A stretch of DNA of 64,000 bases from Candidatus Bathyarchaeota archaeon (lineage in GTDB: Archaea; Thermoproteota; Bathyarchaeia; 40CM-2-53-6; RBG-13-38-9), in assembly GCA_963807605.1 (NCBI GenBank), contig CAWECG010000004.1:416001-480000 (forward strand), read 5' to 3'. The position numbers and the translations under genes are program-made. Below, in pieces: positions 39,516 through 56,373 of the stretch; within the stretch, counting starts at the first letter, position 1, and the number at the start of each line of letters is the position of its first letter. The notes beneath the pieces are model-generated. The model was not told the origin of the DNA and did not search any database. It worked only from the letters and a program-made list of their open reading frames with translations.

Positions 39516-39889
39516 TTCTTATCATCTTTCTTCCGTTTTCTGGATTTGCGGAGCTTTCCCACTCGCTTTCTCATCTCGTCAAGTCTCTGTGCATAATCAA
39601 CGGATCCCAAGTGGGCAAACGCCTCTCTGTGTACGGTAGCGAATATGAATCCTTCATCTCTGAATCTGATTTTTGCTCCTCTTTCGAATTTCTCCGCGAT
39701 GATGCAGAGAGCAAGTCGGTGATCTGGAAAATCAAGGTTTAGATGCGTCAAGGTGTCAACTGGGCCGGACATGTCGTCTATCTGTTTTGCTCTGACTGTT
39801 ACATGCCGTATTCTGGTTGGATCCAAAACGTAGAGACTTTCGTTAACATTGTTGCTCTCGACGCAGTGGCGCACTAACGAGGTTTTCAC
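39512..39889 (-). CDS. Hypothetical protein within urease operon
   Basis: 4-nt overlaps with both neighbours. Confidence 0.65.
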   Translation of the reverse strand: MKTSLVRHCVESNNVNESLYVLDPTRIRHVTVRAKQIDDMSGPVDTLTHLNLDFPDHRLALCIIAEKFERGAKIRFRDEGFIFATVHREAFAHLGSVDYAQRLDEMRKRVGKLRKSRKRKKDDKK

Positions 39890-41461
39890 CTCTTGATTTC
39901 AGAGACGGCTTGAGTGGTAAGTTCTTCTGCAGCCAGGTTCCTGTCAATCCGTAGAACGGATTTGGCTATTTCTCCTGCAGACTCTAGAGCAGTTGTCTTG
40001 ACTAGAAGAGGGTCAATAATGCCTCTTTTCCACATGTCTATTAATTCGCCGCTCTCTATGTCTATGCCAAAACCTTCTGGCGATGCTTTCACAGCCATGA
40101 CTTTTTCAAGCCCGTTGAAACCGGCATTTGTCAGTATCTGACGCATTATGCTCTCAAGTGCCGCAATCACGACATCGAGGCCAATACTTTCCAAACCTTT
40201 CAAGTTAACATTCTTGACTTTTTTTATTAAGTGAAGTTCTGCAGCGCCACCACCGGCGACAACTCCTGTGTTCAGAGCTGCTTCAGCAGCATTGACGCCA
40301 TCTCTAGTGGCCCTCCACCTTTCAAGGGATGTTTCTTTTGTTGCCCCAGATATGATGATGGTAACTATGTTCTTGCCTGACCCATTTTCTATGTATACTA
40401 CACCTTCCTTCTCGTCCTCATAGATGCGGTCTGCTTCCCCCAGGATGTCGGGTTGCTTTAGGTCTTCAAGCATTCTTACCAGCTTTGCGCGTGTATGCCG
40501 TGCTAGGTGTTCTATCTCATCTGTGGAAATTCGGATTGCGAACACTTTGTTCTTGATAAGCAAATTCTCAATGAACTCATCCACCTCGGGAGATGCGATA
40601 AGAAGGGTGTTGACGCCGGTGGCTAGGATTTCATTCACTATTTCTTTCGATTTTCTGATTCGGTCATTTTCCATAGCGGCTATATCGTCATATTTGTTGC
40701 TGTCTTTCATCCATTGTTCTTTGATAGGCTTCAGGTCAAGCTTGCACAACATTATCTTTGGAGTTTTGACCTCCTTGGGCATATCAACGTCCATTCTCTT
40801 TCTTTCCAAGACGATGCCATCGACGACTCTATCCTTCATATTCAGTTTCCTAATGACCATTACAGCCTTGTCGAAGTCATATTTCCCGTCAAATAATGCG
40901 TTATCACCAATAGACCTTATTGCGGATATTACTAAGGGCGCGAGTATTTGTCCATCCAGTTTTGATGCTAAGGAAGTTCTAACAACTTGTTCGAGCTCAA
41001 TTTCATTTATCTTGATTCTTTTTTGCTTCTTCTTCCATCATCTTACAGGCATACTTTACTCCGCTATCTATGCCGCCGACGATCTTTGATGGATGGACCC
41101 CCAGTTCTTTTATGAATTTTTTACCTTCCTTAATCATTTCTGCGGCCATGACTACTGCCGTAGTGGTGCCATCGCCGACCATTTCTTCCTGTCTTTCCGC
41201 TATCTCCACAATCATCCTTGCTACAGGATGTATCGTCTTCAGGGAGAGAAGGATTGTTACTCCATCATTAGTGACGTGTCTGTTCAAAGTCTGATCTATG
41301 AGGAGTTTATCCAGTCCTTTGGGGCCCAAAGTTGTCCTAACTGTTTCAGCTACAGCTACTACGGCATTGCAGTTGGACTCTAGAGCGTCCATCTCCACAT
41401 TTTGAGCCACAGGCCGCCAAACACTATGACCTGGACTAGACACCATTATCCCCCTTTCCAT
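39886..41461 (-). pseudogene. Thermosome-like (Cpn60/TCP-1) chaperonin split by a +1 indel at T6 (41019-41024)
   Basis: TTLGPKGLDK, TNDGVTIL, GDGTTT, GGGAAE, IIDP..VK; removing one base joins both ORFs into ~524 aa. Confidence 0.85.
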
Positions 41462-41524: not shown

Positions 41525-43252
41525 TCACGCCATGAAGTACCTTTGGGCCAAGGCTAGCTCTTTCGCCGGTTCTACTGTAGCAATCTCTCCGTCAAGTCTT
41601 ACCTCGTAGGTTTCAGGGTCTACTGTTATCTTGGGAGTACTATCGTTCCACACCATGTTCTTCTTGCCTATGTTCCGGCAGTTCTTTACTGGCAATATGA
41701 CCTTTTCGAGTCCTAACTTTTGAGGCACTCCAAGCTCTGCGGCTGCTTTTGATATGAATGTGAAGCTAGTTTTCTTTACTGCCCGACCGAGTGCACCGAA
41801 CATTGGTCTGTAGTAAACCGGCTCCGGAGTTGGTAGGGACGCATTCGGATCTCCCATTATAGACCAAGCTATGAATCCTCCCTTGAAGATCATCTTTGGT
41901 TTCGCTGCAAAGAAGGGCGCCTGATACATTACTATATCTGCGTACTTACCGACTTCAAGGGAGCCGAGATATTCTGCAACACCATGAGTGATTGCTGGGT
42001 TTATTGTTGTCTTTGCGATGTACCGCTTAGCTCTAAAGTTGTCGTTCTCCGGGGAGTCTTCCTTCAGCTTGCCGGTCATCTTTTTCATCTTGTCCGCAGT
42101 CTGCCAGCAACGGATTACTACCTCCCCAATCCTACCCATAGCTTGACTGTCTGCGGAGTACATGCTCAAGACACCTTTATCATGCAGAACATCCTCTGCA
42201 GCGATTGTTTCGGCTCTGATTCTGGATTCTGCAAAGGCGACATCCTCTGATACCGCAGGATTCAGGTGATGACAGAACATCAACATGTCCAGATGCTCAT
42301 CCACTGTATTGACAGTATAAGGTCTTGTCGGGTTTGTTGAAGAAGGAAGTACGTTTGGCTCTCCTGCTATCTTCATAATATCGGGCGCGTGACCTCCGCC
42401 AGCTCCCTCTGTGTGGTAGGTGTGTATTGTTCTACCGTCGATCGCATTTATCGTGTCCTCGACGTAACCGCATTCGTTAATCGAGTCGGTGTGTATCGCC
42501 ACTTGTGTATCCGTGAGGTCCGCTGCTCTAAGCGAAGCGTCTATAACTGCGGCGGTTGTCCCCCAATCCTCATGGTCTTTAAGACCGCATGCTCCAGCCT
42601 CTATCTGTTCCAGCTGAGTGGCGAGTGTTGGGTGTGAGTCGTTGCCTTTGCCCAGGAAGCCCCAGTTCATCGGTGTATCCTCTACAGCTTCCAACATTCT
42701 ATGCATGTTAAAGACGCCAGGAGTACATGTAGTAGCGTTGGTACCGTCTGCAGGCCCGGTTCCTCCACCGATCATATTGCATATTCCATTACTTATCGCG
42801 TCGACGTATTGCTGTGGGCTTATCATGTGAACGTGTGTATCAAAATGACCTGGAGTGCAGATTGTATGTTCCCCGGCGGTGGCTTCCGTACATGCCGAGA
42901 CTACCATGTGAGGATCAACGCCATCCATTACATTGGGATTGCCGCCTTTTCCAATCCCTGCTATTTTGCCGTCTTTTATCCCGATATCGGCCTTCAGGAT
43001 TCCCAGGATAGGATCTAGTATGATGGAATTGGTGATTATGAAATCCAAAGCCCCATTCGCATTTGTAACTCCTGGCGTTTGGCCTAGTCCATCTCTTATT
43101 GTCTTGCCTCCACCGAAGACCTCCTCGTCTCCGTGGGTTATCAGATCTTTCTCTATCTCGATGAGTAGGTCTGTGTCACCTAGTCTTACTTTATCTCCGG
43201 TTGTGGGCCCATAAAGATCACTGTACTGTTTTCTTGTTAGTTTCAAAACCAT
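41525..43252 (-). CDS. ureC: Urease alpha subunit
   Basis: [39 protein letters not shown]. Confidence 0.97.
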
Positions 43253-43258
43253 TTTTCT

Positions 43259-43675
43259 TCACGCTCCTTTGAAGTCTAGTTTCTTCGCCTTTTCAAGAGC
43301 GGCGGACTTGACTGTACTTGACAGTAGACTGCCCATCGTTAGTGCATTGAATCCGTAGACAACCTTCTTGCCGCCTAATTCGCAGATCTCAACTTCTTTT
43401 GAGTCACCCGGCTCAAACCTTACAGCTGTTCCTGCCGGGATATTCAGTCTATACCCGAATGTTTGTCCTCTTGGGAAATCGAGTTTCTTGTTTACCTCGA
43501 AGAAATGCGTGTGGGAGCCTATCTGTATTGGCCTGTCACCGGTGTTCTTCACCGTAATCTTAATGGTCTTTCTATCTTTGTTGCAGATGACTTCTCCGGG
43601 AGCTAGAACGTATTCGCCCGGTAGGACGTGTGTTGGGTGTTCCTCTTTCCTTTTTTCTTCTTTCTGCTTACTCAG
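43259..43675 (-). CDS. ureB: Urease beta subunit (probable CTG start)
   Basis: LPGEY..NTGDRPIQIGSHTHFFEVN..PAGTAVRFEPG; conserved PGEY lies upstream of the ORF-track GTG. Confidence 0.92.
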   Translation of the reverse strand: MSKQKEEKRKEEHPTHVLPGEYVLAPGEVICNKDRKTIKITVKNTGDRPIQIGSHTHFFEVNKKLDFPRGQTFGYRLNIPAGTAVRFEPGDSKEVEICELGGKKVVYGFNALTMGSLLSSTVKSAALEKAKKLDFKGA

Positions 43676-43686
43676 ATTTCATCACC

Positions 43687-43989
43687 TTACTGAATAGGAT
43701 CGTGTACGGTCACAAGTTTGGTGCCGTCTGGGAACGTGCCTTCTACTTGTACAGTGTGTATTAGCTCAGAGACACCGGACATTACATCGCCTCTTCTTAG
43801 TACGGTTCTTGCGGATTGCATCAGTTCTGCAACGCCTTTTCCCTCACGAGCGCCCTCGACTATGTAGCTTGCAATGAAAGCGACCGCTTCCGGGTGATTC
43901 AGCTTTATTCCTTTCTTCTTGCGTTGTTCTGCTATTTGTGCCGCTGTCCAAATCATCATTTTTTCAATTTCTCTTGGAGCCAACATCAT
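43687..43989 (-). CDS. ureA: Urease gamma subunit
   Basis: [23 protein letters not shown]. Confidence 0.97.
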
Positions 43990-44138
43990 TTTATTTTCTC
44001 TCTCCTAATTTTATTTTCTCTCTCCTATTTTCATCCTGACTTTTACGCTCACCTTTCATTTGGAAATTTCTTCTCGATTCGAAATCATCTCAGTATTCTT
44101 TTGTAGTTTGTATCCATCTCCTCATGGCGCAGCACTTG

Positions 44139-45194
44139 TCAGGGCCTAGCCCATCCGATGCCAGCTGGGATATTCAACGCGAACGGAGCTGCTAGCAGAA
44201 ATGCCCACGCCGTAAAGACGAACGGTCCAGTCAAAGCTGGAAGCCCCCATTTGCTAAAGAAGTTCTGGAAGGCAGGCATCGTAACCAAGCTGCAGACTAT
44301 TGTTGCAAATACCGCGTACAGGAAGGTTTGCCAAGTCAACGGCAGGAAACTTGTAAGCGCGATCATGACCAGGACTTGGTTGAATCCGTGTACGCCAACC
44401 CTAATTTCTGAAGTCGGAAGCCTCGCCATTATTGCCAGAGCTGCTCCTATCGCGGATCCTATCAGTGCCATCAAACCAGCCAACCAAAGCGTAGATGTCG
44501 GATCCCACCCACTAGTGAAGGCATTCGTGAATAATCGGTCTGGAGGAAAGAGCTCGAAAGAAAGGGTTAGGCCCACAACCCAGAATATTCCCGTCTTCCA
44601 ATTTTCAACAAATGTGACTTGGGAAACCCCATTGAGAACTGCCTTCGTGAATTCTTTTGCCGTCCATTTGAATCCAGCTATCACTGTATCAGCTGGCGCA
44701 CTTGGCCATATGTCATGGCCGTATCTTTTGGTTGCATACATTAGAAGCCATGTTGAGAATATGAAAGATGAAGTAAAGCCCGGAATAGCCCAACCTTTTC
44801 CACCTAAGACGAACCAATCACCCATGACGTGAGCCATCGTCATCCAGACTACCGCAGTGAATGCAGCGCCAAATAATGAAAGTACAAGTGTTGCTCTGTT
44901 GGTCTTTGCGAATGGCCCAGACCAGAATGCCATCCCAGTCAAGATGGAGTTAAATCCGAAAAGACCAAAAGTAACCAGACCATAGGGAGCACCCAATATT
45001 AACGCAACTGCTGCGCCTATTAATCCAGAAACCACCATCATTACACCTGCTTTTCGAGAGGCGATCAAAACTCCAATTAGGATGAGCAGACCAGTAAGTG
45101 CTGAACTAATCAGAGGTACTTCTGAAATCCCATTGAAGAGAATGTAGATGAAATCCAATATTGGATTTCCAGTTACAAAACCTGGTGCCGACAA
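44139..45194 (-). CDS. Urea transporter (UT family)
   Basis: Internally duplicated halves NGISEV/NGVSQV, GLFGFN/GVHGFN, LPALTGPF; adjacent to ureA. Confidence 0.85.
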   Translation of the reverse strand: MSAPGFVTGNPILDFIYILFNGISEVPLISSALTGLLILIGVLIASRKAGVMMVVSGLIGAAVALILGAPYGLVTFGLFGFNSILTGMAFWSGPFAKTNRATLVLSLFGAAFTAVVWMTMAHVMGDWFVLGGKGWAIPGFTSSFIFSTWLLMYATKRYGHDIWPSAPADTVIAGFKWTAKEFTKAVLNGVSQVTFVENWKTGIFWVVGLTLSFELFPPDRLFTNAFTSGWDPTSTLWLAGLMALIGSAIGAALAIMARLPTSEIRVGVHGFNQVLVMIALTSFLPLTWQTFLYAVFATIVCSLVTMPAFQNFFSKWGLPALTGPFVFTAWAFLLAAPFALNIPAGIGWARP

Positions 45195-46041: not shown

Positions 46042-46650
46042 TCAATTTTTTGTGATGTCAAGAAAATATTCATAGATTCTCAAATCTTCAGTGAGCTCAG
46101 GGTGGAAACAGGTTCCTATCATGTTGCCCTGTTGGACAGCAACCGTTCTGCCCTCTAGTTTGCTGAGTACCTTTACGCCTGAGCCAATTTCGACGACTGT
46201 TGGAGCTCTTATGAAGACTCCTCTAAATCTCTCTCCCAAGATGGGAATGTCTAGGTCTGCCTCGAATGATTCACGTTGCCTTCCGAAGGCATTTCTCTCA
46301 ACCGTTACATCCATCAACCCTAAAGTCGTTTGAGCAACCTCCCCCACATTCCGATCGTGGACTTTCTTAGCCAGCATTATTAGCCCTGCGCATGTGCCCA
46401 TTATGGGCATGTCTTCATACGCGCGTTTCTGGAGGGTTTTGGTCACATCGTTAAGGTTGGCGAGTATGCCTATGACTGTGCTCTCTCCGCCTGGAATTAT
46501 TAGTGCGTCTGCTCTTTGAATATCGGTGGATCCTTTGACTGTTTCAACTATACCTTTGAATCCTTTTCGATCCATCGCGTGCCTAGCCGCTTTTACGTGT
46601 TCTTCGATGTCGCCTTGAAATCCTAAGATGCCTACAGTTATATCGCTCAA
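46042..46650 (-). CDS. pdxT: PLP synthase glutaminase subunit
   Basis: PGGEST, GTCAG, RNAFGRQ, FIRAP, FHPEL. Confidence 0.95.
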
Positions 46651-47612
46651 CCACTGCCACGCTCCTGCATTCTCAACTCCAGAGTCTGGAGGTCCATACC
46701 GATCATGGACTTCTTCTCGTCGACCATGCTCTGGGCCTCAGCAACTTTGGATGGATCGTCATGGAATGTTACGGCCAAGACTATTGAGCGTGCACGCTCA
46801 GCAGGATCCTCCGATTTGAATATTCCTGAGCCAACGAAGACCCCGTCACATCCCAGATTCATCATTAAAGCAGCGTCTGCAGGTGTAGCAATCCCTCCGG
46901 CTGCGAAATTAACCACAGGTAACCTTCCAAGCCTTCCAGTCTCGTTCACTAGCTCGTAGGAAGCCCTCAACTCCCTCGCGATCTTAATCAGTTCCTGCGT
47001 GTCTTGTACCTCGTAGATAGATTTGATCCGTCTGATCTCGTTGTTAACAATCCTAGTATGTTTGACAGCTTCTGCAACATTTCCAGTGCCAGGTTCACCT
47101 TTTATCCTGATCATGGCTGCACCTTCTTCTATCCGACGAAATGCTTCTCCAAGATCTCTGGCACCGCACACAAACGGCGTTGTGAAATCCCATTTCCATA
47201 TGTGCCTCTCCTCATCTGCTGGGGTTAAAACCTCGGATTCGTCTATCATATCCACGCCAGCAGTCTCTAAGATCTTTGCTTCCCAAGTGTGGCCTATGCG
47301 GCATTTCGCCATAACCGGGATCGTAACGTTATCCAATATCTCCTTGATCGCGTTGAGGCTGGCGGTTCTGGCTACACCTCCAGATTTCCTTACATCGTAG
47401 GGTAGCTTATCCAGAACCATGACGGCTACCGCCCCAGCCTTCTCAGCAATCCTAGCCTGTTCCACATTTGTGACATCCATTATCACACCGTGCTTAAGCA
47501 TATGGGCGAAGCCACGTTTCAGAAGGGTGCTCCCTTGAACGGTATCAGCCCCCTCGATCCTTGCGTTGTGTACTCCTTTAGGCTGATGTATAGTTCCAGC
47601 TATTGAAATCAT
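46647..47612 (-). CDS. pdxS: PLP synthase lyase subunit
   Basis: [34 protein letters not shown]. Confidence 0.96.
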
Positions 47613-47636
47613 GGTATATAAGAGGGGGAAGAGATT

Positions 47637-47674
47637 ATATAAGTTTGAACCTATATATCAGTTCGGACTTATAT
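47637..47674. promoter_or_regulatory. 38-bp imperfect palindrome overlapping the divergent pdxS / thrC-padR promoter region
   Basis: ATATAAGTTTGAAC-N10-GTTCGGACTTATAT (12/14 arm match); TTATATAA at 47635-47642. Confidence 0.7.
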
Positions 47675-49139
47675 GGTTCTGCTATGTTCAGATTGTGGCG
47701 TCAATTACGCGGACTCTGAGGCGCTCAGGGTCTGCCGAAGATGCGGGCAGCCTCTATCGGTAACCTATGACTACGACAAGATCAGGGAGACACTTAGCAT
47801 CAAAGAGATCTCCAAGAGACCTTTTCGGCTATGGAGGTATCTCGAACTGCTGCCCATCACAGAGGAGGCTCATGTGATCTCACTGGGCGAGGGCGGAACC
47901 TACCTGCATAGATGCGATAGGCTCGCCAAATCATTGAGGTTAAAGAAGCTATACTTGAAAAATGAGACCACCAACCCTACTGGCTCATTTATGGATCGGG
48001 GCGTAACGGTCACTGTCACCAAGGTTAAACAAACAGGAATCAGAACCGTCTGCTGTGCCCCAACAGGGAATCTTGGCTCCTCCCTAGCAGCCTACGCAGC
48101 CAAAGCAGATCTAGAATGTAGAGTCTTCATCTCACATGAGGTGGACCTTGGTAAGCTCTACCAGATGATAGCCTTCGGTGCCGATGTCCAGACCGCCAGA
48201 GACATAGACGATGCATATCAAAAGGCCACTAGGATCGCTGATAAGAGCTACTTGGTAACCCCAGAAGATCCATACCTCCTCGAGGGAGAGAAGACTATAG
48301 GATATGAAATATGTGAACAACTCGATTGGCACACACCAGACTTGATAGTAGTTCCAATGGGAAGCGGCGGAAACCTCTCAATGATCTGGAAGGGAATTCA
48401 GGAATTCCTCCAAATCGGCTTAATCCGGAATAGTCATGCAGCCATGGTCGGCATTCAGAGCTCAAGCCACTCACCGATAGTAGACGCCTTCAAGGGCGCT
48501 CGTAAACTAGAAAAATCCAAGGGAGAAGGAAGATCTTTAGCTGTTGACATAGCTGTCAAGAATCCCGCTCTTGGAGACGCAGCCTTGAAGGTGATAGAGG
48601 CCTCAAAAGGCATAGCAACAAGCGTCTCCGACAACGAGATTCTAGAAGCAACACGATTACTTGCAAAGACAGAAGGGATCTTCGCCGAACCTGCTGCAGG
48701 CTCCACAATTGCCGGGCTTACGAAACTGGTAGAGTCTGGAGAGGTGGCCAGAGACCAAGAGGTCGTCTGCATAATAACAGGCTCAGGGCTCAAAGACCCT
48801 TACACCGCCCGTAAGTTTGCAGATGAAATGAAGCGTACTCGCAAACTCGTAAACAGTATCGACGAAGGTAGGGATGTCAGGCTCGGCGGTACAAAAATGA
48901 ACATCCTCAAGATCCTTCAGAATAGAGAACTTTATGGTTATGGCATATGGAAGGAGCTGTTAACTTATCATTCGAAAAAAGTCACCATGCCAACAGTGTA
49001 TCAACATCTACAAGAGATGGAGATGCGGGGATTGCTCAAACGTACAAGAAGAGAGGAATCAGTGGGAAGACCAGACCGCTGGTATTACATCCTAACAGAG
49101 AGGGGCAGGGAGGCTCTAAAAGCCTTCAGCAGACTATAG
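47673..49139 (+). CDS. Threonine-synthase-like fold-II domain (catalytic Lys replaced by Met) fused to C-terminal PadR-like wHTH
   Basis: SLGEGGT, NPTGSFMDRG (canonical SFKDRG), EGIFAEP, TGSGLKD; then ILKIL..YGYGIWKEL..PTVYQHL..LE..GLL..YYILTERGRE. Confidence 0.85.
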   Translation: MVLLCSDCGVNYADSEALRVCRRCGQPLSVTYDYDKIRETLSIKEISKRPFRLWRYLELLPITEEAHVISLGEGGTYLHRCDRLAKSLRLKKLYLKNETTNPTGSFMDRGVTVTVTKVKQTGIRTVCCAPTGNLGSSLAAYAAKADLECRVFISHEVDLGKLYQMIAFGADVQTARDIDDAYQKATRIADKSYLVTPEDPYLLEGEKTIGYEICEQLDWHTPDLIVVPMGSGGNLSMIWKGIQEFLQIGLIRNSHAAMVGIQSSSHSPIVDAFKGARKLEKSKGEGRSLAVDIAVKNPALGDAALKVIEASKGIATSVSDNEILEATRLLAKTEGIFAEPAAGSTIAGLTKLVESGEVARDQEVVCIITGSGLKDPYTARKFADEMKRTRKLVNSIDEGRDVRLGGTKMNILKILQNRELYGYGIWKELLTYHSKKVTMPTVYQHLQEMEMRGLLKRTRREESVGRPDRWYYILTERGREALKAFSRL

Positions 49140-49344
49140 CACCTGATCCAATAGAGAATATCGAGGGTCAGTATCACGTCGGGCCGCCCAAGGTCAGACA
49201 GCTCAGACTCAAATGTCGAATGTTATGTTATGAACCTCAATTTCAACCCAATTTCCTCAACAAAAATGCTCTGGGCCCGGTTCGAACATCAGAGGTATGA
49301 ACCCGCGTGAATTTTGAGCCCAAATCTAGCACCGTTAACGCATC

Positions 49345-49442
49345 GAATCCCGTCGGGCTCGCCAACAATAATCGATAAAAATTGTGGCATAATAACGGCG
49401 ATTGTGGTCTACAGGCAATTCAGGTATTCGCACCTAATAAGG
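49345..49442 (+). repeat. 98-bp direct repeat X, copy 1
   Basis: 11 mismatches to 56662-56759 by manual count. Confidence 0.95.
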
Positions 49443-49697
49443 GGTGCATACCGGCGGCTGCACCATTCTAGCGGTTCACAGTATCATCTGTAGACAAGAT
49501 TCCTGAACCTAAACAATTCGCCTTCGACACGGCTGTGAAAGTGTGAATCCCGCCCGGTCCACCATTCTGCACGTTCCGAATGAAAACGGTCTTTTTACGC
49601 ACTATCTTGGAGCTGTGGAAGAGCCACTTGCGAGAGGTAGATAGTTCTTATTCATATCTAGCTAATCAAATCCCGGCGGCCGCACCAATGATTTTTG

Positions 49698-49837
49698 TAT
49701 TGCTTGGTTCATTTGACTGTCATGACTTCCGCCCGCTATTCGAGCCCTAACCAAAGTGAATTGGCCTAAATGCTGAACCGTTCAGATCGGTCAATTTTGA
49801 TGGTATCTGACTCTTTATTTAGTCCAACACCCGCGGG
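49698..49837 (+). repeat. 140-bp direct repeat Y, copy 2
   Basis: Matches 35721-35860. Confidence 0.95.
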
Positions 49838-49854
49838 CCGGCAATTCTCAGTGC

Positions 49855-50700
49855 CTACGTGCTACCGTCTTCTGTTTCAGATCTTTTCGTATGCTGAAGG
49901 GTGGCCATCTTGAGGCGGGACGTCATTTTTCTCAGTTTCTCCGTTGTCCTAATGGGTGATCCATGATTCTGCTCAATCACTTTGACAAACACGCTTCCAA
50001 CGATAGCCCCATCAGCTCCAGCTGCCACAATCTCTCTGATCTGTTCAGGGGTTGATATTCCAAAGCCGGTTGCAAGTGGAATCTCGTCCCTTATGTAGGA
50101 ACGAAACTCCTTAACTAACCTCACAGTCGAATCTGGGAGCCTTCTCCTGGCTCCAGTTACACCAAAGAGTGAGACTAAGTATAGAAAACCTGATGTGTAT
50201 TTCAGGATTTCCTGCAGTCTTTCCGCTGTGGTGGAGGGTGCTGCGAGAAATATTGTGTCGATCTTGGCTTCATCAGCGATCCTCTTGTAAGTGTCTGCCT
50301 CTTCAAAGGGCAGATCAGGGATTACTATCCCGTCAACCCCATTCATCTTTGCTAGTTCCAAGAAATTCTTCAGTCCGCTTTTGTAGATTATGTTATAGTA
50401 GGTCAGAAGTACGACGGGGATCCTGTGTTTTTCCTTGATCTTCTTTACGATCTTCATGACCAGTGGGGGCTTGGTTCCGGCTTTCAATGCTCTGACTGTT
50501 GCAGCTTGAATCGTCGGCCCATCCGCAATTGGATCAGAGAATGGGATGCCAAGTTCAATTACGTCTGCACCTCCTTCAACTAGAGCATCCACAATTCTAG
50601 GAGTGAATTTTGGAGATGGATCGCCCGCGGTCACGTACGTGATCAGCGCGGCCTCATTCCTCTCGCTCAGATCTCTGAAGGTTTCTGCAATAATGGTCAA
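49855..50700 (-). CDS. trpA: Tryptophan synthase alpha
   Basis: [28 protein letters not shown]. Confidence 0.96.
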
Positions 50701-51896
50701 AGTCTTCGCCCCATTCTTCCAGCCACAACCTCCACATCCTTGTCACCTCTTCCTGAGATTGTGACCACGACACCTTCTTCGCTGTTCATCTTGGGTACTA
50801 TCTTCTTCATGTGTGCTAGCGCATGGCATGTCTCCAAAGCTGGAATAATCCCCTCTGTCCTGGAAAGCTCACAGAAGGCTTCCAGGGCCTCTTTGTCTGT
50901 GGCTGTGGCATACTCGACACGCCCTATACTGTGAAGATAGGAGTGTTCTGGGCCGACTGCTGGGTAGTCGAGGCCTGCAGAGACACTGTGGGTTGGCTGT
51001 ACCTGGCCATAGGCGTCTTGGAGAAGATAGGTTAGCATGCCATGGAATACCCCCTCTGACCCTGCACAGATTGAGGCTGCATGCTTTCCAGTCTTAATTC
51101 CTCTTCCTCCGGCCTCGACGCCATACATCTTTACGTTGTCATCATTAAGGAAGTGGTGGAATGTTCCTATGGCGTTGCTGCCGCCTCCAACGCATGCGAA
51201 GAGTGCGCTAGGTAACTTCTTCTCCTTCAGCAGGATCTGTTCCTTGATCTCCTTTCCAATGATACTCTGGAGGTCTCTTACGATCATTGGGTAGGGGTGA
51301 GGTCCTACCGCTGATCCAATCAAGTAGTATGTTGTCTGGGGGTTGGTCGTCCAGTCTCGGAGGGCCTCGTTTATCGCATCCTTCAGTGTCCTTGAACCCG
51401 AATCCACAGGGTGGACCTTCGCCCCGAGTAGCTCCATGCGGAAGACATTGAGCCTCTGCCTCTTCATATCCTCGGTTCCCATGTAGATCTCCGCATCCAG
51501 ACCTAGGGTAGCGCATGCTATCGCCGTGGCCACTCCATGCTGGCCTGCGCCGGTCTCCGCGATAACCCTCTTCTTGTTCATCCTCTTGGCCAGGAGAGCT
51601 TGACCTAGTGTGTTGTTGATCTTGTGGGCTCCTCCGTGAGCCAGATCTTCCCGTTTCAGATAGATCCTTGGGCCCCCGTACCTGCTGGATAGATTCTTGG
51701 CATAGTAGAGGGGTGTCGGTCTGCCAGCGAACTCTCTTAGATAATGGTCGAGCTGGTTCTTGAAATCAAGGTCCTCCTTGAAGCTAAGGTATGCATCTTC
51801 CAGCTCGCTGAGCACAGACATCAGAGTCTCAGGTACAAAGCGTCCTCCATACTTACCGAATTTGCCCTTGAACAAATTGGCCTGTTGCAGGTTCAA
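50697..51896 (-). CDS. trpB: Tryptophan synthase beta (TrpB1)
   Basis: [30 protein letters not shown]. Confidence 0.97.
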
Positions 51897-52537
51897 TATG
51901 CAGCCTCCCTAGCTTTCCTGATGAACTCGGTCATCTTCTCAGGATCCTTAACCCTAGGACGCACCTCGACCCCCGTTGAGACATCGACCCCGTATGGCCT
52001 AACCGTACTTATCGCGTGGCCGACATTCTCTGGAGTGAGCCCTCCGGCAAGAATCATGGGTGCCGGGTATATTGCGTCCCTGATTTTTCTGCTTAAACTC
52101 CAGTCGTGTACAAGGCCTGTCCCTCCACGACCAGTCTGATCATGGGTGTCTACCAATACGGCTTGAGAGAATCTCGAGTATGACAGAGCTTGTTCGATCG
52201 CATCAAGCGCTCCAACATCAACAGCTACTATTACCTTGACTCTTGATGCCAAACCATTCCGGCGATACGATTCAGAAGCCACTCCATGAAGTTGTAGGAA
52301 TTTTGGAGCCAGCTCTTGGCAGATCTCCGCGGTTCTTTTTATTCCGTTGAAGACCGTCACTACCACGCTGTCCACGTTGCTTGGCAATCGGTCTATCAGG
52401 TTCTTTGCTTCTCTGAAAGAGAGATTTCTCGGTGATGCGGCTATGTCGACAATGAATCCTATGGAATCAACACCGGCCTGGACAGCTATATCCAAATCTT
52501 CCTGTTGAGTTACTCCGCAGATCTTTACTTTCACCAT
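51893..52537 (-). CDS. trpF: Phosphoribosylanthranilate isomerase
   Basis: [30 protein letters not shown]. Confidence 0.95.
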
Positions 52538-52543
52538 CTGGAT

Positions 52544-53317
52544 CTATGCCTCCGCCAGCTCCCGGACTTTCTCTTCAGGGTTGAGAGCTGACATGATGGA
52601 TGATCCAACTAGGAAAGCACTCGCTCCACACTCTCTGAGGAAACGAACATGATCTCCGGTGTCGATTCCACTCTCACTCACGACAACATGGTTGCTTGGG
52701 TGGCGTGAACTCAATATCTTCCTTGTGACATCCAGATCTGTCTGCAGGGTCGAGAGATCTCGATTGTTTATTCCAATGAGGTCAGCCTCGGTGCTGAGAG
52801 CTCTTTCGAACTCTTCTGTGGTATGGGCCTCAAGCAGAATCTCCATACCTCTGTCATGCGCTAGATCTATCGTTCCTTCAAGATCGTTATCGCATAGGTT
52901 TCTCTCGAAGAGAGATTCGATCAGCAGTATCGCTTCAGCTCCGATCCTGGATGCGGCTTCAACCTGGATTGGATCGACGATTATGTCTTTCATGAGCCGC
53001 GGAAGGCCACATCTACGCGCGGTTATGAGGTATTCAGTTCTGCCTCTGAAGTGTTTCGGCTCGGTCAAGATCGATAAGCCGACTGCACCACCCAGTTTCA
53101 TCATCGACGCCAAAGCTTCAACGTTAATGTTCTGAGTGATGATCCCCTTCGAGGGTGAGGCGGGTTTGATCTCAGCTATTACTGGATTCCTCTTGCATTT
53201 GAGAATCGACTCTTTGAGCCCCATGCCGACTCTCTCATGAGATTGCTCAATATGATAGTAGCCTTCCGCAACGGTCTCTCTGGCATCCCTTGCCAGGATA
53301 TCTAGATAGTCACGCAG
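52544..53317 (-). CDS. trpC: Indole-3-glycerol phosphate synthase (probable CTG start)
   Basis: IAEIKPASPSKG, GINNRDL, SESGI; frame open upstream of ATG 53224 to CTG 53317. Confidence 0.93.
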   Translation of the reverse strand: MRDYLDILARDARETVAEGYYHIEQSHERVGMGLKESILKCKRNPVIAEIKPASPSKGIITQNINVEALASMMKLGGAVGLSILTEPKHFRGRTEYLITARRCGLPRLMKDIIVDPIQVEAASRIGAEAILLIESLFERNLCDNDLEGTIDLAHDRGMEILLEAHTTEEFERALSTEADLIGINNRDLSTLQTDLDVTRKILSSRHPSNHVVVSESGIDTGDHVRFLRECGASAFLVGSSIMSALNPEEKVRELAEA

Positions 53318-54368
53318 TTATCTCCAGCTCCTCAAGTCTCGACAGGTTGCCGCCAGTGAACTCGATCAGCGAGACGAGTTTTCCGTAAGCTGCACCGCTC
53401 TCAATTGACTGGGCAGCGAGCTCGAGGCCTTCTTCGAAGCTTTCTGCTTTCCCTCCGACTACGATGCCTGCGGCTGCATTGAGTAGTACTATGGCTTGCT
53501 TGGGATCCCTGTGGGTACAGTGGCCTCTCATAATCCTAAGAGTCGCCACCGCGCTCTCATGGGTAGTTGAGCATCGCAGCGCCTCGGGTTTGGCTTTCTC
53601 TATACCAAAGTCCTCTGGCTCGATCGTGAAGCTGCATATCTCATCCTCTCTTAACCAAGAGATCTTGGTCCCTCCGACTGTGGAGACCTCGTCTAAGCCG
53701 TCGAGGCCGTGCACAACCATTGCTTGCTTGACACCAAGGTTTGAAAGTACGCTCGCTAGTGGTTCGGTCAAGGATTCTTGGTATACACCCAGAAGCTGGG
53801 CTGTTACGTTGGCCGGATTGGTCAGAGGACCCAGAATGTTGAACACTGTTCTGATCCCGATCTGACTCCTAGGGTTGACTGCATACTTCATTGCTGGGTG
53901 AAATGCTGGAGCGAACATGAATCCAATCCCAACCTCCTCTATTGCTTTCTCCACCGTCTCTGTTGGTATGTTGAGCCTGAGCCCCAGGGTCTCCAGAACG
54001 TCGGCGCTTCCACATCGGCTTGTCACAGACCGGTTCCCATGCTTTGCAACAGGTATGCCTGCGCCAGCGATGACAAAGGCGGACACTGTACTGATGTTGA
54101 ATGTCTTGACCTGATCGCCGCCTGTTCCACATGTGTCGACTAGGTTGCCTGCAACTTCAGGGTTAATCCGGTGGCAACAGCTTCTCATTACTCTTGCAAG
54201 TGATGTGATCTCGTCTACGGTCTCACCCTTCATCCTGAGGGCTGTCAGGAATGCGGCGATCTGTGCGTCTGTGGCTTTGCCCTCCATGATCTCCTGCATG
54301 ACCTCCCGTGCCTCTTTCTGTGTCAGGTCTCTTCGCTCAACGAGTTTTGCAATGGCTTCCTTAATCGT
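53310..54368 (-). CDS. trpD: Anthranilate phosphoribosyltransferase (probable ACG start)
   Basis: DTCGTGGD, NIST, KHGNR; upstream in-frame IKEAIAKLVERRDLT with GGAGGT SD. Confidence 0.93.
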   Translation of the reverse strand, partial: TIKEAIAKLVERRDLTQKEAREVMQEIMEGKATDAQIAAFLTALRMKGETVDEITSLARVMRSCCHRINPEVAGNLVDTCGTGGDQVKTFNISTVSAFVIAGAGIPVAKHGNRSVTSRCGSADVLETLGLRLNIPTETVEKAIEEVGIGFMFAPAFHPAMKYAVNPRSQIGIRTVFNILGPLTNPANVTAQLLGVYQESLTEPLASVLSNLGVKQAMVVHGLDGLDEVSTVGGTKISWLREDEICSFTIEPEDFGIEKAKPEALRCSTTHESAVATLRIMRGHCTHRDPKQAIVLLNAAAGIVVGGKAESFEEGLELAAQSIESGAAYGKLVSLIEFTGGNLSRLEELEITA

Positions 54369-54954
54369 CTCGGTAACCTCCGTCTAGGAAGTTTCTGAGA
54401 ATTCTTTTTCCTTGGTTGGTCAGGATAGACTCCGGATGGAACTGTAGGCCCTCGATTGGGTACTTGGTGTGGCGAATACCCATTATTTCGCAATCATCAA
54501 GAGAGTAGGCTGTTGCCTTCAAACAGTCTGGGAGCGAGAACAGATCAGCTACGAGGGAGTGGTATCTGGTGGCCTCAAGTGGATTTGGTGTGTCTCGGAA
54601 GATCCCTTTTCCGTCATGTTTTATCAGGCTGGTCTTGCCGTGCATCAGCCTCTGTGCTCTGATGATCTTTCCTCCAAAGGCATGTACGATCCCTTGATGC
54701 CCAAGGCAGATACCTAGTGTTGGTATGTGTCTGCTTAGATCTCTCAGGATGGCCAAGCAGTTGCCGAAGTATCGGGTTTCTGCTGGTGTTCCAGGTCCAG
54801 GGGAGAGAATCACTCTGTCGGGGTTGAGTCGTCTTGCCTCTCCTAGAGTCACCGTGTTGTTTCTGTGGACAACTGGTGTTCCGCCAAGTTCACCGACATA
54901 CTGTGCGATGTTGTATACGAATGAGTCATAGTTGTCTATTATCAGGACTTTCAA
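54361..54954 (-). CDS. trpG: Anthranilate synthase component II
   Basis: IDNYDSF, SPGPG, GICLGHQ, QFHPES. Confidence 0.95.
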   Translation of the reverse strand: MKVLIIDNYDSFVYNIAQYVGELGGTPVVHRNNTVTLGEARRLNPDRVILSPGPGTPAETRYFGNCLAILRDLSRHIPTLGICLGHQGIVHAFGGKIIRAQRLMHGKTSLIKHDGKGIFRDTPNPLEATRYHSLVADLFSLPDCLKATAYSLDDCEIMGIRHTKYPIEGLQFHPESILTNQGKRILRNFLDGGYRDD

Positions 54955-56373
54955 ATCATTTCACCCGCCTTCTCCAAGGCCTTCATGAGAGCCGCGGCTT
55001 TTTGTTCTGTTTCAAACCATTCTTTCTCGGGGTCTGAGTCAGCCACTATCCCTGCGCCTACTTGGATTGAGGCTTTATTCTGATGGGTTGTCAGGGTACG
55101 GATGGTTATGGCAAAGTCTGCGTTTCCGTTGTTCGAGAAGTATCCGACGGCGCCCGCGTATGGTCCTCTTCTTGTGGGTTCAAGTTCCTCAATTATCTCC
55201 ATGGCTCTGACTTTCGGTGCTCCTGAGACAGTTCCGGCGGGGAGCATGGCTTTGAGTGCGTCAAAGCAATCCATGTCTGGACGTATCTTTCCGACGACTC
55301 TGGAGACGATGTGTTGGACATGACTGTATTGGTGTACAGTCATGAATTCAGGTGTGTGGACTGACCCAAACTCAGCTATTCTGCCGATGTCGTTCCGTGC
55401 CAGGTCTACAAGCATCACATGTTCAGCCCGCTCCTTCGGGTCTGAAAGCAACTCTTCAGCCAAGATCTGGTTCTTGGCTTGATCGTCGGTTCTTGGTCTG
55501 GTCCCGGCTATCGGATAGGTCTCCACGAGACCATTTTCAACTCTCACAAGCATCTCAGGACTTGAACCTACGACCTGTCTTTCTCCCATTTTGAGAAAAT
55601 ACATGTATGGGGATGGGTTGATGTTTCTCAACGTTCTGTAGAAGTTGATGAGGCTGCCCTCGAAGTTGAAGTTATAACGTTTTGAAAGGACTGCCTGGAA
55701 GATGTCTCCCGAAGAGATGTAGTTCTTGGCTTTCAAAACAGCCTCTTGAAAGTCGTCTTTTGAAGTATTCGATGTTGGGGTGGTGTATCTGAAGGGTTCT
55801 GGATCGGTGATGGCCTCTTGGATTCTGCTTTTGATCTCTGCCAATCGATCCCTGTTTTGAAAGTAGTAGTATGCTGTTCTGTTGATGTGATCGAAGACTA
55901 TCCCATCGTCAAAGAACGCCATCTCGAGATCTGGGAACTTGAGATCATCGGTGGCGGATTCCGGAATCTTTTCCCAGTACCTTACCGCATCATACGAGAT
56001 GTATCCTACGGCACCACCTGCGAGACGAAACTGGTCGAATGTTAAATGATTCCTCTGAATCTCACTTCGCATGATGTCAAGTGGATTGTGCGTTTCTTGG
56101 CATTCGTCTCCTGATGTCATGCTAGTGGTTCTTGCCACATGTCCTTTGACAGAGATCACTAGGTGTGGGTCAAACCCTATGAACGAGAACTTCGCCAGTT
56201 TTTCCGGGCCTTCAACTGACTCTAGAAGATATGTGTACCCGCTGTCTCCCTCAAGTCTTGCAAAGATATCTGCTGGCGTGTCGGTGTAGGGGATCTCTTC
56301 AAGATTGACCTTAGGCGATTTTCTGGAAGTTGGCTCCTCTAGTCTTGAGGTTTGTCCAAAGGCGATACCCCAT
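54951..56373 (-). CDS. trpE: Anthranilate synthase component I; N-terminus lacks an in-frame canonical start
   Basis: NPSPYM, SSPE, PAGTVSGAPK; conserved YLLES..FIGFDP lies upstream of the ORF-track start; nearest ATG (56373) is one base out of frame. Confidence 0.9.

Follow-up and report, generated by a model that had tools for sequence, protein, structure and literature searches.

The window, by which we mean the whole 64,000-nt stretch of a Bathyarchaeota contig analyzed here, contains a gene for a threonine synthase (ThrC)-like protein that stands head-to-head with pdxS and pdxT (Table 1). A first-pass annotation had described this protein as a ThrC-like domain fused to a C-terminal PadR-like wHTH and separated by 60 bp from pdxS-pdxT, and each point holds. 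Pfam finds PALP at residues 69–370 (E 2.9e-69) and PadR (PF03551) near the C terminus (E 2.5e-14, 53.4 bits against a gathering score of 27), the spacer (47613–47672) is exactly 60 bp, and both pdx genes are intact, with a 4-bp overlap and with catalytic motifs present in PdxS and PdxT. The Cys4 ribbon of the regulator is formed by C5, C8, C21, and C24.

Table 1. Positions of the features discussed, in window coordinates
Feature	Position	Strand	Remarks
pdxT, PLP synthase glutaminase subunit	46042..46650	-	TIGR03800, 212.8 > 105.55; predicted target
pdxS, PLP synthase lyase subunit	46647..47612	-	NF003215, 463.8 > 395; predicted target
Candidate operator	47634..47661	.	left arm 47634–47643, 6-bp spacer, right box 47650–47661
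Regulator gene	47673..49139	+	488 aa; Cys4 ribbon, Lys-less ThrC-like fold-II domain, C-terminal PadR wHTH
Met107 codon (ATG)	47991..47993	+	ThrC Schiff-base Lys position, by alignment to ThrC
PadR-like winged helix	48903..49121	+	residues 411–483; invariant K408, GY, Y-Q-H-L helix
Group II chaperonin gene	39886..41461	-	Cpn60_TCP1
Urease and urea transporter genes	41525..45194	-	transporter PF03253
Gene-free repeat region	49170..49850		
trp operon	49855..56159	-	names by sequence inspection

Several other features of the window deserve mention in their own right. Genes for urease alpha, beta, and gamma and a urea transporter lie just downstream of pdxT. The chaperonin gene occupies two frames whose parts overlap out of frame near 41003–41060, which we read as a single frameshift, from an assembly error or in a pseudogene. 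A complete-looking trp operon (E, G, D, C, F, B, A) is convergent on the regulator gene. The gene-free region holds several imperfect direct repeats of 18–31 nt, 99–174 bp apart, that end in CACCA or CGCCA, like tRNA 3′ ends; no tRNA gene was called there.

Linkage to vitamin B6 genes

Fused ThrC-PadR genes are strongly linked to vitamin B6 genes. A B6 neighbor, either pdxST or an HmpT/PdxU-like ECF S component, is present at 50/66 fused loci and at 0/33 unfused archaeal thrC loci, although the fused loci are related and their counts not independent. Ten of the 66 are divergent from pdxST and 40 lie beside one ECF S-component family (37 from the neighbor count, plus L115, L158, and L164, found by profile). 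Linkage to B6 genes, a test that the first-pass annotation had proposed for pdx genes, is borne out across the family, with the S component rather than pdxST as the commonest partner. The pdxST divergons occur at three separate positions in the regulator tree, and the window protein, instead of joining the pdxST-linked members of its own taxonomic family, groups with the S-component-linked proteins of L082 and L083. This distribution suggests that synthesis and uptake genes have been exchanged at the regulator promoter more than once.

The linked S component is a candidate B6 importer. Its sole PDB match is 4HZU chain S (HmpT/PdxU2; E 5e-13), the substrate of which is pyridoxamine (PMC4860826), and of the three prokaryotic B6 transporters that have been characterized, two belong to PF07155 (PMC9997740). 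Four of the six HmpT pocket residues (taken from PMC4860826) are conserved in the archaeal proteins: Y120 in 37/37, Q143 in 36/37, N140 in 30/37, and E/D41 in 37/37. We infer the archaeal substrate from this likeness, since Lys mostly takes the place of HmpT H84. In the window's own genome (G000), a search for a close HmpT-like S component preceded by the motif described below found none. At the subfamily B loci L146–L160, the regulator, the S component, and an AIR-synthase/ThiL/SelD-like gene occur together in 10 loci, and the ThiL-like protein may be a kinase of B6 salvage.

A ThrC domain without its Schiff-base lysine

The ThrC-like domain has lost the catalytic lysine. In alignments to solved structures, NPTGSFMDRG of the window protein matches SFKDRG of Bacillus subtilis and Aquifex aeolicus ThrC, and its APTGN lies opposite ASTGN, with Pro130 on the Ser, as the first-pass annotation had noted from the sequence. 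That annotation had also called for the ATG codon of Met107 to be checked, and three independent assemblies agree on it: contigs from three independent sediment or freshwater runs (X1, X4, X9) are identical there, with 16–29 differences from the window at other positions. Together with the family-wide loss of Lys, this rules out a sequencing error. None of the 121 top homologues has Lys at this position, and the top 120 all combine PALP and PadR; among the commonest replacements are Ile (83), Leu (16), Val (10), Met (6), and Asn (3). In a joint alignment the Schiff-base Lys is present in 0/105 fused proteins and 98/98 unfused ThrC, so that its loss, whose conservation among PALP-wHTH fusions the first-pass annotation had proposed as a test, is general. 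Close relatives of the window protein are labeled Bathyarchaeia, Nitrososphaerales, and Asgard archaea.

The fold has been retained. An AlphaFold2 model (pLDDT 85.4, pTM 0.75) shows a ThrC fold and then the wHTH, with three helices, a hairpin, and a helix at 406–487; the linker 372–402 has low confidence. The best Foldseek matches are bacterial ThrC structures (E 7e-29, 38% identity). A homodimer model scored 0.89 (0.00 for the best control), with contact agreement between runs of at least 85% and pLDDT of at least 84. Of solved proteins, 20/30 homodimers and 1/23 monomers attain the mark that it passes, and its pass is probably owed to likeness to solved ThrC dimers.

The cofactor pocket is conserved while the substrate loop decays. 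F106, N133, G230, G232, E339, and T369 are kept at 88–100%, and correspond to the PLP-pocket set of ThrC (the Phe before the Lys, the Asn of TGN, the Gly loop, the Glu of EP, and the Thr of TG), with roles assigned from alignments and general knowledge. The Ser of the ASTGN substrate loop is found in 99% of ThrC and 39% of subfamily A. A kept pocket with a decaying Ser and a lost Lys is the pattern expected of a cofactor site that may be under selection without catalysis.

The fused proteins form two subfamilies, each one side of a well-supported branch. In subfamily A, which includes the window protein, a hydrophobic residue replaces the Lys; in subfamily B, which passes NCBIfam PRK05638, Arg does so. 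Since the tree is a quick IQ-TREE search rooted at its midpoint, we do not claim a single origin of the fused family. PRK05638 (NF004170, “threonine synthase”) runs the full length of the fusion, wHTH included. It represents the sister subfamily in which Arg replaces the Lys, which it names as an enzyme, and the window protein falls below its cut-off (317.4 bits over residues 4–485, cut-off 421). The model had no match at E 1e-90 among 61 genomes of the phylum of G337, and none above cut-off in 14 control genomes. In databases the fusion architecture appears only under the threonine synthase name.

What the modified pocket binds bears on the likely effector. One alternative to free PLP is that the protein regulates the same B6 genes in response to an amino acid or phospho-amino acid held with PLP as an external aldimine, as in GabR, or to PMP only. 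The substrate-site residues K161 and Q164 are kept at 99%, and subfamily A has a new acid, D/E292, at 100% where ThrC has S/A/G, on a loop that we take to line the PLP face. Lys-mutant fold-II enzymes retain external aldimines, and entries of this kind, 1d6s and 1ubs, are among the structure matches of the regulator. The homologue of the linked transporter, moreover, prefers pyridoxamine (PMC4860826). However, the predicted targets are B6 synthesis and uptake genes only, with no amino acid pathways among them, and the ASTGN loop is degenerate, which makes this alternative unlikely, if not negligible, beside a sensor of B6 itself.

Far less probable is a working or bifunctional threonine synthase, a trigger enzyme like RbkR, that uses another lysine. 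The protein passes the cut-offs of TIGR00260 and PRK08197, the window's genome has homoserine dehydrogenase and no other ThrC-like gene, and K207 and K374 are invariant in fused proteins. Yet both residues are also at 100% in true ThrC, so they are not replacement lysines. Many fusion genomes also carry a separate unfused gene of ThrC length, all 98 unfused proteins examined keeping the Lys; no thr genes cluster with the fusion, and no thrB scores above cut-off in the window's genome. With hom present and neither a second thrC nor thrB found in this 94%-complete assembly, the organism probably lacks this route to threonine, unless the assembly has missed the genes.

An operator-like element at B6 promoters

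The spacers of fused loci share the element ATATATAAG-N6-CCTATATATAGG. In the window its left arm contains the minus-strand TATA box of pdxS, at about −30 to −23 relative to the ATG, a position that suggests a leaderless or near-leaderless pdxS mRNA. Its right box lies directly upstream of the BRE and is flanked by the regulator gene's TATA box on one side and its start codon on the other. We scored the element with a PWM trained on 17 loci, all outside the family of the window's genome. The window site ranks first in the 2.65-Mb genome at 33.0, and the next non-overlapping site scores 12.6; a second weak copy in the window scores 14.8. A third arm beyond the right box, as in a tandem operator, is not generally conserved. 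A sigma-70 promoter scan was set aside as inapplicable to archaeal promoters. A repeat with core CCTTCACATAGGCGC occurs at at least seven places in the window's genome (on C2, C3, C4, and C5) and may be a small dispersed element.

The operator-like element resembles a TATA box, so core promoter function accounts for part of its conservation. We therefore tested whether it follows the predicted targets when they are not beside the regulator. It does so for unlinked pdxS (17.2 in G101, 23.9 in G301) and for unlinked or convergent S-component genes: 21–23 in G022, G030, and G036, 39.6 in G336, 26.6 in G301, 18.8 in G191, and about 21 in G235 and G305, while in G117 a second copy of the S-component gene scores 21.3 and the convergent one 9.2. 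The regulator's own upstream region is without the motif in G022, G030, G036, G336, G301, G191, G117, and G305. Conversely, the motif is absent where no regulator was detected: none of 26 pdxS promoters from such genomes scores above 5.1 (regulator absence was rechecked for seven). We give no P value, since related genomes are not independent. Some genomes depart from the pattern. The motif is present and the regulator undetected in the incomplete MAGs G085, G294, and G415, of which G085 is 88% and G294 91% complete and both have congeners that carry the regulator; G299, G323, and G327 have the regulator and no motif at the target examined (S component or pdxS).

The element also varies with the regulator. 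A symmetric variant, CCCATATATGGG, occurs in one subfamily A clade at both linked and unlinked targets, and in subfamily B the promoters of S-component and pdxS genes carry a related palindrome, AG-N6-CT. G280 (L113, 4200–5000) is an exception of another kind: the operon opposite its perfect operator encodes a GNAT acetyltransferase and an EamA transporter, and may be an additional B6-related target.

Thermococcaceae, in which some sampled genomes lack the gene, provide a natural comparison. A subfamily B orthologue is present in 36/41 sampled genomes, with Arg at the Lys position in 30/30 copies examined; that of Thermococcus sp. SY098 (WP_324735294.1) reaches 799 bits against PRK05638 and reads SFRDR. 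Where the genome has the gene, AAG-N6-CTTGA closely follows the TATA box in 22/22 pdxS promoters; where the gene is missing, the count is 0/4. Allowing one mismatch, the site is also present at 27/27 S-component promoters of genomes that have the gene, compared with 1/3 of those that lack it, the lone exception being in a 1.4-Mb assembly. The four genomes without the gene may represent few loss events. At L307 (6001–7329) the Thermococcus orthologue has aCPSF1 (beta-CASP) directly upstream and rpiA downstream, and is not linked to its predicted targets.

It is correspondingly very improbable that the element is merely a pair of back-to-back TATA boxes, the linkage inherited synteny, and the protein a regulator of something else: the element is AT-rich with a TATA consensus, and its 12-bp right box alone is neither unique nor discriminating in the window's genome, but it follows unlinked B6 genes, is not seen at pdxS promoters where the genome lacks the regulator, shifts in sequence with regulator lineage, and is missing together with the gene in Thermococcaceae, and two unrelated B6 functions are repeatedly linked to the regulator.

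Predicted mechanism and relation to known regulators

Taken with the loss of the Lys and the linkage to B6 genes, an operator-like element that follows its targets supports the proposal of the first-pass annotation that a B6 regulator was built from a fold-II enzyme. We consider it likely that the protein is a homodimeric archaeal B6-sensing transcription factor, made from a dead ThrC domain and a PadR wHTH and acting on B6 genes. Control of pdxST by this protein is very probable, and a B6 vitamer is likely its direct effector. Since a Schiff base cannot form without the Lys, the dead domain, with its PLP pocket kept, would be a reversible, non-covalent sensor, and loss of the Lys would allow fast ligand exchange without turnover. 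The sensed ligand would be a phosphorylated B6 vitamer, most plausibly PLP itself, with PMP or a PLP-amino acid aldimine as possibilities.

The two wHTH domains would contact the inverted repeat in the 60-bp spacer, overlapping the pdxST TATA/BRE; a dimer is expected because the site is palindromic. The sign of regulation leans toward repression. If the site is the 24-bp inverted repeat centered on the 6-bp spacer, which shares its AG-N6-CT core with the subfamily B sites downstream of TATA, TBP/TFB would be blocked and the B6-loaded protein would repress pdxST and its own gene, somewhat the likelier case. If the protein instead binds the 12-bp palindrome, whose conservation exceeds that of the rest at some unlinked targets, the site would lie where archaeal activators bind, and the apo form would activate, as in PdxR and RbkR (PMC10450172, PMC5397151), with the ligand switching it off; we think this somewhat less probable. 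Either way, enough B6 would lower pdxST expression, and other family members would control the HmpT/PdxU-like importer.

The closest functional parallel is PdxR, of the MocR subfamily of GntR in Bacteria, which likewise joins a wHTH to a sensor derived from a PLP enzyme and is divergent from pdxST (PMC5320631, PMC10450172). Its regulon is pdxST and pdxU, with autoregulation, and the same is predicted for the archaeal family. The window has the pdxST divergon with a predicted operator in the spacer. However, PdxR has an N-terminal GntR wHTH and a fold-type I domain with the conserved Schiff-base Lys309, whereas the window protein has a C-terminal PadR wHTH and a fold-type II domain with no Lys. 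The two are convergent, not homologous. With ThrC of the Zn-ribbon type (TIGR00260, PRK08197; PDB 6cgq, 2zsj, 1v7c) the window protein shares the fold, the PLP-pocket residues, and a dimer-type interface, and differs in the lost Lys, the degenerate substrate loop, the added PadR domain, and its linkage to B6 rather than thr genes.

The archaeal enzyme-HTH vitamin regulators RbkR (PMC5397151) and ThiR fuse a DNA-binding domain to an enzyme-derived one and act on genes for vitamin synthesis and uptake by way of operators that lie close to the TATA box and vary between lineages, and the window family likewise has both the enzyme-derived sensor with its DNA-binding domain and conserved sites at such genes. 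It differs from them in the vitamin, the enzyme fold, and the C-terminal PadR domain, and RbkR is still an active kinase. The evidence supports well a new, separate family within this known kind of regulator. We found no description of it in the searchable literature, a coverage that leaves out subscription journals.

Archaea are reported to have no MocR factors (PMC5320631), the regulators named in a 2023 survey of PLP pathways are all bacterial (PMC9997740), and we found no B6 regulator described for archaea. We find it reasonably likely that the proteins described here are the first archaeal B6 regulator family and the first transcription factors on a fold-type II PLP enzyme, non-covalent and Lys-less, with members in Bathyarchaeia, other Thermoproteota, Asgard archaea, and Thermococcales that curated annotation has concealed as threonine synthases. 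Correcting the PRK05638 label matters in itself, as it can falsely complete threonine pathways in metabolic models, including that of the window's organism. The family is directly testable in Thermococcaceae, which have genetic tools and an orthologue with a clear site in most sampled genomes. It offers a candidate regulator, operator, and regulon for archaeal B6, points to an archaeal B6 importer, and, if the reading is right, would show that a PLP sensor has evolved from a PLP enzyme a second time, independently, on another fold and without a covalent link.
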